From: Candidatus Woesearchaeota archaeon
GTDB lineage: Archaea; Nanobdellota; Nanobdellia; SCGC-AAA011-G17; GW2011-AR18
Direction of reading: 5' to 3'
DNA: 64,000 nucleotides
NCBI GenBank assembly: GCA_018302765.1
Contig: JAGVZG010000003.1
Location: 11,081 to 75,080, forward strand
Position 1 is the first letter of the stretch; every line of letters begins with the position of its first letter. Below are positions 27,001 through 33,000 of this stretch, in pieces. The position numbers were made by a program.

Positions 27001-30000
27001 GCCATCCACATAATCCAATATTGCAGCTAATCCAAACAAAAATCCTCCTAACAAATAATTATTAAAAAAAATCAAAACAGAAGAAACAATAACCAAGGAA
27101 GCCCAGAAAGCAGAAACTTGGTTTGCAGTTATTGGAGTATGAACCAAGACCCAGCTTATATAAGGTGAAATATATCTATAACCCATCCAGCTGACAGTAG
27201 GGGGTTGAACAATATTTTTATATTGCTTAAAACTTACCATAAACAAAACACAGTAAATAGTCTTTTAAAACTTATGAATTTACAAACTCAAAATATTATT
27301 TAATAGATTTTCCTTAGCATAACTTCCAAAGCATCACGAGTAAGAACACGCGGATTATTTATAACTCTTTCAGGATTAAATCCTTCATTTAATACAATAT
27401 CAACGCCACTTTCAGTTACACCTAATTTTGATAATCTTCTTTCTAAACCTATTAAATCTAATAGACACTCAAGCTTATGTTTAACATATAAACAATCTGT
27501 TGTATCAAACATTAAACAAAGTTCACCCATTGTATCTAAAACATAACTTATTCCTCTTTTGTCTTGAACTGTATCTTCTTCTACTGCCCCATTATAATCA
27601 AATATAGAAGGAAGAGTTAAAGCAACTGCATGACCATGCTGCACACCAAAATGTGCACTTATTGGATAAGAAACTGAATGAGGCGCAGTTGTTCTTGCTA
27701 TATTTATTGCTTTCCCAGCAAGATTACTACCACAAGTCATAACTTCTCTGTGTTTGGCATATGGATTATTTACAACTTCATATAAAACAGGCAAAATTGA
27801 AGTAATTGCATCACTGCTATATCTCTTAGATTCGTCAGTTGATCTCACTGACCAAAAAGCTTCAATAGCCTGAGCCAGAGCATCTATGCCTGTACAAGCA
27901 GTAATATAAGGATTTAAGCTTGAAGTAAGGCCTGGATCAATAATTGCAAATTCAGGAAAAACAATTTTATTATCTAATGAATACTTTTGCTTTTCCATAT
28001 AAATAACAGCAAATTGTGTTGCTTCACTTCCAGTGCCTGCTGTAGTTGGTATAAGAATTTTAGGCAAACTTTTTCCTATTAGAGGAATTTTTTTTGTGAT
28101 TAAACTTTTATAATCATCAATTAATTGTGTAGATAAAACAGCAATGCATTTTGCAGTGTCTAAAACATTTCCACCTCCAATTCCAACAACAACATCAGCT
28201 CCACTGCTGCGTGCAATAGAAACACCTTCTGCTATAGTACCAATATTAGGCAACGAAGAAGAAACAATAAAACGATTAACGTTATAAGGCGAAAGTAAAA
28301 CATCAACAATTGGTTTAGCCCCACTAGCAACATAAGAAGTACTGCCTACAACAAGCATAACGTTTCTGCTGCCAAGAATATTTAAAGCTTTACTTAACTC
28401 TCGTACTTTCCCCCAGCCTTGATATTCAACAATTCCCAATTTCATCTCCTAAGAAAATCGCAGAAACGTTCTGTCAATTGATGAGGTGAAATTTTTTCTG
28501 TTATGCGGGACGCTTTAGGAATTTCAGAAGAAGAAACTTTTACATGTATAAAATTTGGGCCATCATTAATAAGAGATGTTTTAACAAGCTCAGATAATTT
28601 GCTAGCTGTCGTACAAAAAGCGCTGTTTCTGTAATCACAATTGAAAGCAACTTCTGAAAAATCAACAGTGCCTGACGTTGTTGGCTGACCTCCTGTTGAT
28701 TCATAAGATTCATTATCAATTACAATATGAACAAGATTTTTTGGTCTGTAGTGTCCTATTGAAGACATTACACCCATATGCATAAGCAAAGCTCCATCTC
28801 CATCAATAACAACAACTTTTTTATCTGTCGAACATGCTACGCCCAAACCTATTCCTGCTGCATGGCCCATTGATCCCTGCATATAAAAATGAGAAGTTCT
28901 GTCCTGTATTGCAAAAAGCTCACGTGAACTAGTTCCAGTAGTTGAAATAACTACAACATCTTGATTAACAGAACCAACAATAGTACATAGAGCTGTAGTT
29001 CTGCTCATTCTAAGCTTATATTCATTTTCAATAAATATATTCTTCCACTTATAATGAGGAATGTTAAAATGTCTAAAGGAATTTTCATCATGTTCTAATA
29101 CATCTTTTTTCACAACCAAAGCTACTAACTTTCTATTTTCAATAGACTCAGAATGAGCACGTTTAACACAGCCATAAGCATCAGTGTCATTCTTAGGAAG
29201 ATCATATGCAGAAATAGAAAGACTTTCAAGTATTTTACGCATTGCTTTTCCAATAATTTTATGTTGTGGTTCATCCTCTATACCATAAGCTCTTCCACTA
29301 ATAAAAAACAACATTGGTATTCCAAAAGGTATGCACAATGAAGACAAAGGATTTATTGCATTTCCTAATCCAGAATTCTGCATTATAACTACAACATTTT
29401 TTCCACCCAAATAAGCTCCTGCTGCAAAGCTTACAGCAAGTCCTTCATTAGGAGCAACAAAATAAAAAGATGTTTCATCTCTAGAAATATTATTTAATAA
29501 TGAAATAAAGTAAGAACAAGGAACTCCAGAAAAAAAACTATAACCTTTCTCTTTTAATAATTTATATAAATCAATAGATTTCATACTAATGCTTTCCTTC
29601 CTTATTGTACCAAGGAACTAATTCACCACAAACTCTTTCTAATCCACTTCTATCTAAAAGAGATAACTCATGCTGGGTATCTCCTGATAAACGTCCGCCT
29701 ATGCGCATAACTAATAATCTCCCAATTCCATTATCTGAAATAAAACGATGTTTCACACAAGGCTTCATATAAACAGAATCTCTAGGATAAATATACTCAT
29801 ACTCCACTTGTCGATCATAACTAGATTCCCAACTAAGACCAACACGACTTTCACCAATATTGTAAATATATTGATGTCCTAAAGTTTTTAAGCTTGAAGT
29901 CTCACCTGGACGTACAGTAACTTCTAATCCTTTAGAATAAGGTAACTTAGGAGTAGAAGCAAGCTCAACAAAAGTATAAAGTCCACTTTCATCTGGATAA

Positions 30001-33000
30001 TTCCATCTTCTAGCTTGCTCATAAGATAAATTAATCACAGGATCAGAACTTACTACAGGCATTAAATCTCTAACGCTAACACCTAAAACTTTAGCAACAG
30101 ATCTTAATTCATCTACAGTAGGAATAATATCTCTGCCATCTTCAATAGATTGCATATACTTTAAAGATAAACCAACTTTTTTAGCAAGTATGTCAAGAGG
30201 CATAGATAATTGTTCACGGAAAAACCTAATTAAAGATCCAGAAGCTCCTCCATCAGAATAATTAATTAAAAAATCAGAAGCAGAATTCAAACCTAAAACT
30301 GCTAATTCCTGCTGGGCATCACCCATTAACCTAACACCATAAGTCAAAGCAAGAATAACGCCAAGTTCTCTAGCTTCATTTTTACGAGTTGCAAAAGTAT
30401 GGGGAATATAAGGTGTAATATACATTGAATCTCCTGTATTTGTCTGTACACAAAAACGTTTTCCTCCATGTTCATAATAAAAGTTAACAGGTCCAATGAA
30501 GTATGTAAATTGATGTAAAAAATGCCCATTATTCCAGCACAGTTCTTCTGAATTAGGGTCATTATTATCAACAACTAGAAGTTCTTTTATCCACTCTGGT
30601 CTAAAAAGAGAAGTCCTGCTCATTGCAGTGTCTCTGTATTCATAATAAGGTCTGCCTCCACGATCAAGAACACGAGAAGATCTTTCGCTTTGTTCATTAG
30701 TCATTATTAACGCACCACTACGAGCATCATCTTCAAAAACATAAAAATCCCTTATATTAACTGGCCAAATCTGAGATGCTTTAACAATAAGTTCATGCGG
30801 TATTTCTTCTCTACCGTCAATATATCTCTGCAAAAGAGAAGTATCAATTCCTAATTCACATGCAGCAGTACTAAAATCACGTTTAAGGTCATTTAAAATG
30901 CCAAAAAAATTACGTCCCATTAATTTATTACTTAACATTCCCAACTCCTCCAAATTCAGCAACAGCAGCACAATAATTATCTGGAGAATGTAATTCTCTC
31001 CATCCATGATTCACTTCAACACTTTTAACATTATAACCACGATCTATTATCTCTTGAATTACATCTGTCAAAGAAGCCTTGTAAATTGATTCAGCTTCAT
31101 GAAAATATCCGTCTATATACTTTCCCAAACAATCATGATAAACTTGCATTAAAGACTCTGCACCTCTTCTAGATAAATAAGTAATGCCTATAAACTCAGC
31201 ACTCGCCTGTTCACAAGGAATTGATTTGCCTATTCTTAAAACACGATTTTCTGGTCTACGCAACTGTCTCAAACCTGAATTATTTGTAACAACCAAATCT
31301 AACTTCGATTTATAGTCTGGCTCACGCAGACGATAAGAATTATCAGTAACAATAATAATATCACTATCTTGCCTTGAAGACAAAACTTTTTTAATAATTT
31401 CATCTGTAAATAAAATATCAGAGTAAACTATTAACAATTCATTATTAAATTCCTTTTCAGCACGTGCAAGTGTAGCCATTATTCCTTGATCTTGCATACT
31501 TGCATCACAAAAACGAACACCTTGAACATAAAGTTTCTCTTCATGCTGGCCACGAATTACAACGCAATCGCTAATGCCAACATTCTTTAATGACTGAAGT
31601 TGATAATCAATAACTCTACCATCTCCAAATTGAAGAGAACTGCAAGGCTTATTAGAACACAAATCTCCTAAATTAGTATGCTTACCTGCTGCAGGAATTA
31701 CTACTTTAACGCCATTTTCATAAGCCATTCCTCTGGTCTTTAAGTCATTAAATCCTACAACTTCAAAAATAGTTTTAACAGGAGTACATAACCCATCTGC
31801 TTCTAAAGACCTTCCGTGCGCAAGAATAGATCTGGCAACGCCTTCCATACTTCTATGGGCAGCACGCAGCATATGGTTTGCATAAATTACAACATTAAAT
31901 CCTGCTTCTCTTAATTCATCTTCAGTAATAGAATTATAAGTAGTAGGAACACAAATAAGAGGTTTAAATACACCTAGCTCCCTACATAAAACATGATATT
32001 CTCTAGAAAAAGATAATACTTGGTCTGGCGTATTTTGATTAGAATGTATCATTACGCCATCAACACCTGCTTGAAGATAAATTCTAGCTCGTCCAACAGC
32101 GTCTTCTAAATCACGTCCTGCAATAAAACTTTCTATACGTGAAAAAATAAGTAAATCTTGACTTAGTCTATTATCAATACCCCTACGTAATTTAGCAGCA
32201 AAATCCTTAGGGTCTTCTAATACATGTGAAGAAGTTTTATCCAAACTATTACGTTTAGGCCAAACTTGATCCTCAACAATAACAGCAGAGACACCAAAAT
32301 TAGTAAGACGCTGAAGCAAATAATCAAAATTATTAGAGTCTCCTCCAGTGTCCCCATCAACAATCAAAGGTTTGCGGGTTACATTTGTAATTTCAGCGAC
32401 AGTTTCAATTCTGGAATCAAAACTCACTACTTGAACATCAGGCTGACCTTTTGCTGCTGAATCAGTAAAACTACTGACCCATATGCCATCAAATTCTAAT
32501 GCGCCATTAGAACCATCAATAATATCAACTGAAGCCTTTTCAGCCACTATTGCGCTTAAGCCATTATGTGCTTCTAAAACTCTTACAAATCTACCATTAT
32601 CAAACATAGCTCTAAGCAAACCTCTACGTTTCTCCGGAAGAATAACTTCTCTACTAGGCATTAGCATCACTAAGTGATAAACAAAAAAGAGAACTTATAA
32701 AAAGTTTATGGTAACTAAAACCTGTATATTAAAGAATAATGTTTAATCATATTTTCCAAGAAAAGAATTAATTCTAATTCTAAACATATCTCTCAAACCC
32801 TCAAATACAGTAGTTATTTTTACTCTTTCACTACCTACGTAATGCCACTTAACTGGAGCTCCAACAATTTTAAATCCCTTTTTCTTAGCTATGAATAAAG
32901 TTTCAATATCAAATCCAGGGTTTACAGCAGCTCTTTCAAGTTTGAAATCTTTCTTCCACCTTCGTAGCATTGAAGGAAATATGACCTTAATAGATTTTTT

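Follow-up and report, generated by a model that had tools for sequence, protein, structure and literature searches.

A probable methylphosphonate synthase within a phosphonate operon of a Woesearchaeota-labelled archaeal genome

We analysed a stretch of 64,000 nucleotides (the window) from contig JAGVZG010000003.1 of a Candidatus Woesearchaeota archaeon, in which a minus-strand array of phosphonate genes includes a candidate gene for methylphosphonate synthase (MPnS). The MPnS gene (29586..30938) encodes a protein of 450 residues, counted from an ATG internal to the longest open reading frame (ORF), which is identical to GenBank MBS3152087.1 (P0121) and named there 'helix-turn-helix domain-containing protein'. 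It lies between the genes for a fusion of phosphoenolpyruvate (PEP) mutase with a nucleotidyltransferase (PepM-NT; 30928..32661) and for phosphonopyruvate decarboxylase (Ppd; 28442..29584). These are followed, on the same strand, by genes for an iron-containing alcohol dehydrogenase (Fe-ADH; 27300..28445), a CDP-alcohol phosphotransferase-like membrane protein (CDP-OH_P_transf; 26533..27240) and an S-adenosylmethionine-dependent methyltransferase (25827..26552). From sequence comparison and a predicted structure, the gene probably encodes MPnS, which converts 2-hydroxyethylphosphonate (2-HEP) to methylphosphonate and CO2, and not hydroxyethylphosphonate dioxygenase (HEPD), which produces hydroxymethylphosphonate and formate.

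A preliminary description of this DNA, made by eye, had placed the protein in the family of 2-HEP-consuming oxygenases with a helix-turn-helix (HTH)-cupin-HTH-cupin architecture, and both assignments hold. In a phmmer search against all PDB sequences, residues 30-472 of the longest ORF match MPnS from Nitrosopumilus maritimus (NmMPnS; 6B9S/6B9T) with an E-value of 2e-128, 432 bits and ~47% identity, which is far beyond chance. HEPD from Streptomyces albus (SaHEPD; 6B9R) scores 284 bits, and HppE is a weak match. PhpD is not among the PDB matches at E<0.01, hence the similarity expected of a class I HEPD is absent. An AlphaFold2 model built on an alignment of 28 sequences is confident (predicted local distance difference test 90.4, predicted template modelling score 0.85), and a Foldseek search of the PDB superimposes it on substrate-bound MPnS (6B9T) with a template modelling (TM) score of 0.94 and an rmsd of 1.9 Å (46% identity, ~450 columns). 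The TM scores are 0.89-0.90 for SaHEPD and 0.73 for PhpD (3G7D). The layout assigned to the model by DSSP consists of helices (2-65), strands (76-200), helices (207-292) and strands (301-413), corresponding to HTH1 (30744-30938), the catalytic cupin 1 (30339-30713), HTH2 (30063-30320) and cupin 2 (29700-30038). In Pfam and NCBIfam profile searches of the window proteins, the 473-residue ORF has only HTH domains (HTH_3/HTH_31, residues 257-315) and no NCBIfam model matches the MPnS protein, which explains the name given to it in GenBank.

Two alignments, the one from HMMER and a separate MAFFT alignment of 83 sequences, were used independently to count residue equivalences. The active-site block (30399..30524, minus strand, codons verified) aligns without gaps (GHFLHQFTYFIGPVNFYY...NTGDSMYITPYIPH versus GHLLYQFTYFVGPVNYYF...NTGDSVWGLPFAPH). 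The H-x3-Q pair (HFLHQ) recognised by eye provides the iron-binding residues H139 (H162 of the longest ORF; 30522-30524) and Q143 (Q166; 30510-30512), equivalent to H148 and Q152 of NmMPnS and to a His and a Gln of SaHEPD. H180 (30399-30401) corresponds to NmMPnS H190 and again to a His in SaHEPD. With S. albus HEPD as the HEPD reference, the iron ligands are therefore all present. The second-sphere positions, said beforehand to be Phe/Ile in MPnS and Tyr/Gly in HEPD, fall in the same gap-free block and are F153 (F176; 30480-30482) and I174 (I197; 30417-30419), equivalent to NmMPnS F162 and I184, where SaHEPD has Tyr and Gly. Read together, NmMPnS positions 148/152/162/184/190 are HQFIH in the window protein, as in 72 of the 83 aligned sequences, and HQYGH in SaHEPD. 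These five residues are invariant in 28 diverse homologues, likewise K19, R93, Y101 and N136, which are equivalent to NmMPnS K28/R102/Y110/N145 and occupy columns conserved in 76-82 of the 83 sequences. The Tyr/Gly pair of class II HEPDs (SaHEPD Y163/G184) is replaced by Phe/Ile, and the iron ligand is the Gln of H-x3-Q, not the Glu of the 2-His-1-Glu triad of class I HEPDs.

Phe and Ile behind the Gln reportedly steer the methylphosphonate radical away from rebound with Fe-OH and towards hydrogen abstraction from bound formate. In a 2025 groundwater study, a 2-His-1-Gln triad together with Phe and Ile is described as 'required for methylphosphonate synthesis', with attribution to Born et al. 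2017 (PMC11978286). Because the bit scores, the gap-free Phe/Ile signature and the Foldseek ranking agree, we favour MPnS over HEPD; within the limits of sequence and a predicted structure, this settles the product, first considered undecidable by eye.

Departures from the common signature occur elsewhere in the alignment. A homologue from the Marine Group I thaumarchaeote F20 (L026, match at 2952-4286) carries the HEPD-type Tyr/Gly pair (HQYGH) inside an MPnS-rich part of the tree, which suggests a natural switch of product, to hydroxymethylphosphonate, among Thaumarchaeota. Three sequences from Chloroflexota/SAR202 (L028, L033, L034) combine Tyr with Ile (HQYIH), and their product is not predictable because the Phe/Ile versus Tyr/Gly rule covers no such pair. 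In actinobacterial homologues (L066, L067, L078) the Phe is replaced by His.

The start of the gene is the internal ATG at 30938-30936, giving the 450-residue product. The longest ORF runs from an ATG at 31007 to the stop at 29586 and encodes 473 residues, and its first 80 nucleotides (30928-31007) overlap the 3' end of the PepM-NT gene, whose stop codon is at 30928-30930. The preliminary description was right about this overlap, but it had taken the longer form for the annotated one: apart from being the longest ORF, the 473-residue form is found only in one SRC-sourced gene call (P0123), whereas the NCBI and ENA gene calls, including the ENA protein record P0001, use the 450-residue form. 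The start proposed there, the Met of MLSNK (ATG TTA AGT AAT AAA), is upheld by these calls and by the homologues, which start right at the PepM stop or overlap PepM by 20 nucleotides. The alignment to NmMPnS, too, begins only at ORF residue 30. On these three grounds we rejected the 473-residue start, and the 23 additional codons (30939..31007, minus strand) are a spurious extension inside the PepM-NT coding frame and outside the MPnS gene. A start at M30 is less likely than one at M24 (the ATG at 30938), as no Shine-Dalgarno-like motif precedes M30 and gene callers pick M24.

The true PepM/MPnS overlap is 11 nucleotides at the PepM stop (ATGTTAAGTAA), and the minus strand at the PepM end reads ...TTT GGA GGA GTT GGG AAT GTT AAG TAA. 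The GGAG said to precede the internal Met is there, within a GGAGGA 7 nucleotides upstream of the ATG, but it is weak start-site evidence by itself, because a Shine-Dalgarno-like motif at -16..-7 precedes 3 of the 41 gene starts in the window; two of these three belong to MPnS and Ppd and are operon-internal. The MPnS stop and the Ppd start are 1 nucleotide apart, and Ppd and Fe-ADH overlap by 4 nucleotides. An ENA copy of the contig (ANAN16-1_...scaffold_864; L001 position 11036) differs from the window at 1 nucleotide in 21,353. The difference is E346A in the second cupin domain of MPnS (codon 346, 29901-29903), and probably reflects population or assembly variation.

The MPnS gene thus adjoins the genes of the 2-HEP pathway (pepM, ppd and Fe-ADH) in a coupled array on one strand, which is conserved in relatives. 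The PepM-NT gene (longest ORF 30928-32670) has a PEP mutase domain (residues 16-302; 31756-32616; PF13714, 1.4e-46) and a C-terminal LicC/PntC-like nucleotidyltransferase domain of the MobA type (residues 319-447; 31321-31707; PF12804, 3.6e-9; LicC 1JYK, 3.9e-6). Ppd, a thiamine pyrophosphate enzyme according to Pfam, exceeds the cut-off of TIGR03297 (360.2 bits, cut-off 312.5). Fe-ADH (Pfam Fe-ADH, 2.7e-35) is the presumed phosphonoacetaldehyde reductase that makes 2-HEP. Its best NCBIfam match is TIGR03405 Phn_Fe-ADH, below the cut-off, and MBS3152085.1, a member of its 90% cluster, is named 'phosphonoacetaldehyde reductase' in GenBank. In the pathway that we propose, the PEP mutase domain would convert PEP to phosphonopyruvate, Ppd would decarboxylate this to phosphonoacetaldehyde, and Fe-ADH would reduce the latter to 2-HEP. 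MPnS, as a non-haem Fe(II)- and O2-dependent bi-cupin enzyme, would then cleave the C1-C2 bond of 2-HEP to give methylphosphonate and CO2. The iron would be held by H139, Q143 and H180, with F153 and I174 packing behind the Gln as in NmMPnS.

A continuation of the pathway can be proposed more tentatively. Nucleotidyltransferase domains of the PF12804 type fused to Ppm are phosphonate cytidylyltransferases (Rice et al. 2019, PMC6697681). Since the window domain is LicC-like and fused in the same manner, we infer activation with cytidine monophosphate (CMP) and a transfer of the Kennedy type. The PepM-fused domain would convert a phosphonate, methylphosphonate or 2-HEP, to its CMP conjugate, and the CDP-OH_P_transf-like protein (PF01066 1.4e-7, 32.5 bits versus a cut-off of 22; AF2299 4O6M, 2e-7) would move the activated phosphonate to a hydroxyl group of a lipid or glycan acceptor. 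The surrounding glycosylation island, with its glycosyltransferases, two Wzx-type flippases and AglB, would make and export the acceptor, so that the cell surface would carry a methylphosphonate ester. The chance that this downstream scheme is correct seems to us a little under even.

The methyltransferase (Pfam Methyltransf_25/11) adjoins the CDP-OH_P_transf gene in relatives (L082, L086). A B12-binding radical SAM enzyme is encoded 6 kb from MPnS (22143-23579, minus strand), with weak sub-threshold likeness to the PhpK/Sden_1168 P-methyltransferase families among many others, and a ferredoxin-like ORF of 99 residues lies near the cluster on the opposite strand (23669-23968). Both are syntenic in L082, and the radical SAM enzyme may conceivably have a part in phosphonate tailoring.

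Among the candidates scored, approximately 1,975 proteins match MPnS at E <= 1e-10. The nearest non-identical ones are 53-57% identical to the window protein, and thaumarchaeal MPnS ~46-48%. A genome scan with an alignment-based query, covering one genome per GTDB species, returned 85 relatives labelled as Woesearchaeota, Nanoarchaeota, Nitrosopumilaceae, Pelagibacteraceae, Chloroflexota/Limnocylindria, SAR202, Myxococcota, Omnitrophota, Elusimicrobiota and others. In a neighbour-joining tree (100 bootstraps) the window protein belongs to a clade (A; 100/100) with P0002-P0008 and the metagenome-assembled genome (MAG) RIFCSPHIGHO2_12_FULL_30_20, of which the labelled members are Woesearchaeota. 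A second DPANN clade (B; 100/100) groups with a Thaumarchaeota-containing set to the exclusion of clade A (98/100). Phe/Ile sequences, including NmMPnS and a Pelagibacteraceae clade, stand on both sides of the window clade.

Within clade A, at 53-57% identity, the gene order PepM-NT, MPnS, Ppd, Fe-ADH, CDP-OH_P_transf, methyltransferase, Wzx flippase is kept, and the B12-radical SAM gene and the small ferredoxin-like ORF are nearby. Clade A clusters have PepM with the C-terminal PF12804 fusion, accompanied by CDP-OH_P_transf and the methyltransferase; clade B clusters have PepM with an N-terminal PF01467 cytidylyltransferase fusion, accompanied by a cytidylate kinase and CDP-OH_P_transf. CDP-OH_P_transf is therefore co-located with MPnS in both DPANN lineages. 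A clade B example is the Nanoarchaeota genome C4_metabat.bin.63 (L088, 8679-16169), in which an N-terminal CTP_transf_like-PepM fusion is encoded, a gene of 298 codons follows MPnS and a cytidylate kinase gene lies beside CDP-OH_P_transf. The prefix C4 of the isolate name may stand for groundwater sample C4 of PMC11978286, in which MPnS was detected, but this is a guess. Some labels conflict. Protein P0068, which NCBI labels 'Nanoarchaeota archaeon', comes from a contig whose depositor named it 'uncultured Methanosarcinales archaeon' (L010), and a copy from a 'Patescibacteria' MAG (L017) clusters tightly with one from a groundwater thaumarchaeote (L014); both cases are likely due to mis-binning or mislabelling. 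Conflicts are also listed for L004, L008, L009 and L055.

We considered whether the protein could be an MPnS-like oxygenase with a different substrate or outcome, acting for example on CMP-2-HEP or another 2-hydroxyalkylphosphonate, by analogy with Fom1, Fom3 and HppE. The distinctness of the clade (53-57% identity within it, ~47% to NmMPnS), the fusion of PepM to a cytidylyltransferase as in Fom1 and the syntenic B12-radical SAM gene would fit such a role. In contrast, the equivalents of the NmMPnS iron ligands and of the residues that we take to be its 2-HEP ligands are all invariant, the B12-radical SAM protein is far below every NCBIfam cut-off, and the many sugar-modifying enzymes of the island offer alternative partners for it. 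We know of no precedent for an MPnS acting on nucleotide conjugates, and we consider this explanation improbable. A class II (Gln-type) HEPD, making hydroxymethylphosphonate and formate from 2-HEP, would share the fold, the 2-His-1-Gln triad (284 bits and a TM score of ~0.9 against SaHEPD) and the PepM, Ppd and alcohol dehydrogenase partners, which are common to both pathways. However, both discriminating positions are of the MPnS type in a gap-free alignment, and the MPnS match is ~150 bits above the HEPD match. The same alignment is able to detect the HEPD-type pair, because the natural HQYGH variants, SaHEPD and L026, show up in it. We therefore regard a HEPD as very improbable.

Several points weigh against the assignment as MPnS and the pathway built on it. 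The window protein and the other members of its clade are predicted enzymes, and among characterised ones the closest shares only ~47% identity with it. The Phe/Ile rule derives from few enzymes (NmMPnS and SaHEPD mutants). For K19, R93, Y101 and N136, the equivalent NmMPnS residues K28/R102/Y110/N145 are ones which we take to bind 2-HEP or its phosphonate group. MPnS needs O2, and Woesearchaeota are usually described as anaerobes. At the first step, the PepM motif EDQVWPKRNS (32245-32274) has Gln for the Lys of the canonical EDKx5NS, with the remaining motif residues K, N and S present, and PepM scores just under the cut-off of TIGR02320 (312.8 versus 319.55 bits); for these two reasons the step is slightly atypical. 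The Gln looks tolerated, because it recurs in a relative's PepM at 61% identity (L084/L085); 61 of the 71 other cluster-linked PepMs have EDK.

For the downstream part, what we take to be the canonical motif of CDP-alcohol phosphotransferases, D-x2-D-G-x2-A-R-x8-G-x3-D-x3-D, is not matched by the window protein, which has D-x2-D-G-x2-A-R-x9-G-x3-D-x3-T. The missing fourth Asp, and the choice between methylphosphonate and 2-HEP as the activated species, make this part conjecture. The fourth Asp is Thr, Ser or His in all DPANN MPnS-cluster proteins of this type (the window, L082, L083, L086, L087, L088, L004, L007-L010 and L012), and those of clade B also have Glu for the third Asp. From these substitutions, the DPANN proteins may form a distinct subfamily that uses CMP-phosphonates.

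Nearly the whole window (1-64000) is one glycan-biosynthesis island of ~60 kb that encloses the phosphonate operon. It contains ~10 glycosyltransferases, 2 DegT aminotransferases, NDP-sugar dehydratases and epimerases, 2 carbamoyltransferases, 2 Wzx flippases, a PMT_2 protein and several methyltransferases, as well as an STT3/AglB-type oligosaccharyltransferase of 879 residues (50505-53144, minus strand), whose sole NCBIfam match, archaeo_STT3, is far below cut-off. Three adjacent paralogous SGNH/GDSL-AlgX-like proteins (4037-5257 and 5257-6537, plus strand; 6688-7770, minus strand) are probably glycan O-acetyltransferases or esterases. The only housekeeping gene encodes threonyl-tRNA synthetase (ThrRS; 2320-4035, plus strand; passes TIGR00418).

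No tRNA, rRNA or Rfam family was found in the 64 kb, and the taxonomy was therefore read from ThrRS and from exact protein matches. Ten window proteins have the same sequence as, or share a 90% cluster with, proteins in the range MBS3152062-MBS3152106, deposited in GenBank for 'Candidatus Woesearchaeota archaeon' (locus tags J4230_...) on a contig of 99,968 bp; identity was seen for MBS3152082-MBS3152106. The named relatives among the best 120 ThrRS matches are all Woesearchaeota, Nanoarchaeota or Nanoarchaeia (57-76% identity). A non-thaumarchaeal archaeal host, as suggested at the outset, is on these protein comparisons well supported, namely a DPANN archaeon of the Woesearchaeota. The host probably lives in aquifer groundwater, to judge solely by the names of records and isolates: the record name ANAN16-1 and the isolate name RIFCSPHIGHO2 of a relative point to the Rifle aquifer.

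Could the gene encode a true MPnS on a contig that is not of DPANN origin, either mis-binned or carrying an island recently transferred from a bacterium or a thaumarchaeon? MAG labels are fallible, as the conflicts over P0068/L010 and L017 illustrate, and the window has no rRNA or tRNA. Against this stand the ThrRS gene on the same contig with its named relatives exclusively from Woesearchaeota/Nanoarchaeota, the STT3/AglB-type gene, the 59-kb contig of a relative that carries both a clade A MPnS (P0003) and a ThrRS (P0228) 58% identical to that of the window, and the full bootstrap support of clade A apart from the thaumarchaeal enzymes. The GC content at third codon positions (GC3) of the phosphonate genes (0.15-0.18) equals that of the rest of the window, and the higher total GC at 28-32 kb stems from codon positions 1 and 2. 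The phosphonate cluster therefore shows no sign of recent import, and we rejected recent horizontal transfer of these genes; a non-DPANN origin of the contig as a whole is highly improbable. That the protein is a DNA-binding HTH regulator without enzymatic function, as its GenBank name implies, is a negligible prospect: the profile matches in Pfam and PGAP, limited to HTH_3/HTH_31, would fit it, whereas the alignment with solved MPnS spans the whole protein, including the two cupin barrels and the metal ligands, the HppE/HEPD/MPnS fold itself comprises HTH-like domains, and the start and stop codons of the gene are coupled to those of PepM and Ppd, between which it lies.

Taking the protein as MPnS, the window would hold an apparently native and complete methylphosphonate pathway in a Woesearchaeota-labelled genome. 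Our literature search found no paper reporting MPnS in Woesearchaeota, DPANN or Nanoarchaeota. The organisms known to produce methylphosphonate are Thaumarchaeota of the ocean, SAR11 and a small number of other bacteria, and the taxa in the survey by Lockwood et al. are Thaumarchaeota, a 'Crenarchaeota archaeon' and bacteria of several orders (PMC9381506). The enzyme family, its markers and the pathway are established knowledge, and the sequences have been made public without annotation; what appears to be unreported is the lineage and apparently the habitat, and no new mechanism is suggested. MPnS-signature genes are also present in several other DPANN MAGs and in MAGs of Chloroflexota, Omnitrophota and Elusimicrobiota.

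Such genes escape annotation in three ways: PGAP gives the enzyme the name of an HTH protein, the window PepM does not pass the EDKx5NS filter, and no mpnS was detected in a lake study based on KEGG annotation (PMC10734540). Motif-filtered inventories (PMC6697681, PMC8942020) would discard the window cluster because its PepM has EDQ. Since these routes miss or under-call the genes, more methylphosphonate may be produced outside the ocean than is currently estimated. Also notable for specialists is the occurrence of an O2-dependent enzyme in a lineage considered anaerobic.

Methylphosphonate is a substrate for aerobic methane formation driven by C-P lyase. The 2025 groundwater study describes such methane formation by Methylotenera, reports MPnS in three samples only, with the organisms unnamed in the main text, and raises a geological origin of methylphosphonate (PMC11978286). 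We speculate that terrestrial producers have been overlooked among the Woesearchaeota/Nanoarchaeota, in at least two independent lineages, which would activate methylphosphonate as CMP-methylphosphonate, attach it to a membrane lipid or surface glycan via the divergent CDP-alcohol-phosphotransferase-like enzyme without the fourth Asp, and feed C-P-lyase bacteria such as Methylotenera. This chain of events is possible and, taken as a whole, rather unlikely; if true, DPANN methylphosphonate would supply C-P-lyase methane formation in oxic or micro-oxic groundwater.

Among known systems, NmMPnS resembles the window protein in its HTH-cupin-HTH-cupin fold, H/Q/H triad, Phe and Ile behind the Gln and K/R/Y/N positions, and it is likewise encoded with pepM, ppd and Fe-ADH; it differs in sequence (~47% identity) and by its place outside the strongly supported clade of the window protein. 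In the thaumarchaeal cluster of Nitrosotenuis DW1 (L089), PepM stands alone, Ppd is split, the nucleotidyltransferase is separate, sulfatases flank the cluster and CDP-OH_P_transf is absent, whereas in the window PepM is fused and a CDP-OH_P_transf-like gene follows. The class II enzyme SaHEPD (2-His-1-Gln, 6B9R) has the fold, the triad, the block GH..xQFTYF.GPVN and the substrate 2-HEP in common with the window protein, for which this substrate is predicted, but it has Tyr163/Gly184 in place of Phe/Ile, 36% identity and 284 bits versus 432 for MPnS. PhpD from Streptomyces viridochromogenes (class I, 2-His-1-Glu, 3G7D) and HppE (1ZZ6) belong to the same cupin superfamily and perform Fe(II)/O2 chemistry on hydroxyalkylphosphonates; both are remote, PhpD with 18% identity and a TM score of 0.73, and the HppE match covers one HTH-cupin half only.

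For the nucleotidyltransferase, the closest parallels are PntC (PF12804) and the Fom1 cytidylyltransferase (PF01467) described by Rice et al. 2019. A PepM fused to a MobA-like NTP transferase, as in the window, is the commonest Ppm fusion. Characterised PntCs prefer 2-aminoethylphosphonate (AEP), whereas the window cluster is without an AEP transaminase and the substrate would be methylphosphonate or 2-HEP. The second DPANN lineage has the N-terminal PF01467 fusion instead of the C-terminal PF12804 fusion. Its clade B homologues, labelled 'Nanoarchaeota archaeon' or 'Woesearchaeota archaeon' in GenBank (for example JAUYPX01 and JACPCD01), share with the window the DPANN labels, the HQFIH signature and a CDP-OH_P_transf without the fourth Asp, and come largely from groundwater-named MAGs, yet they form a separate lineage with ~48% identity to the window protein.

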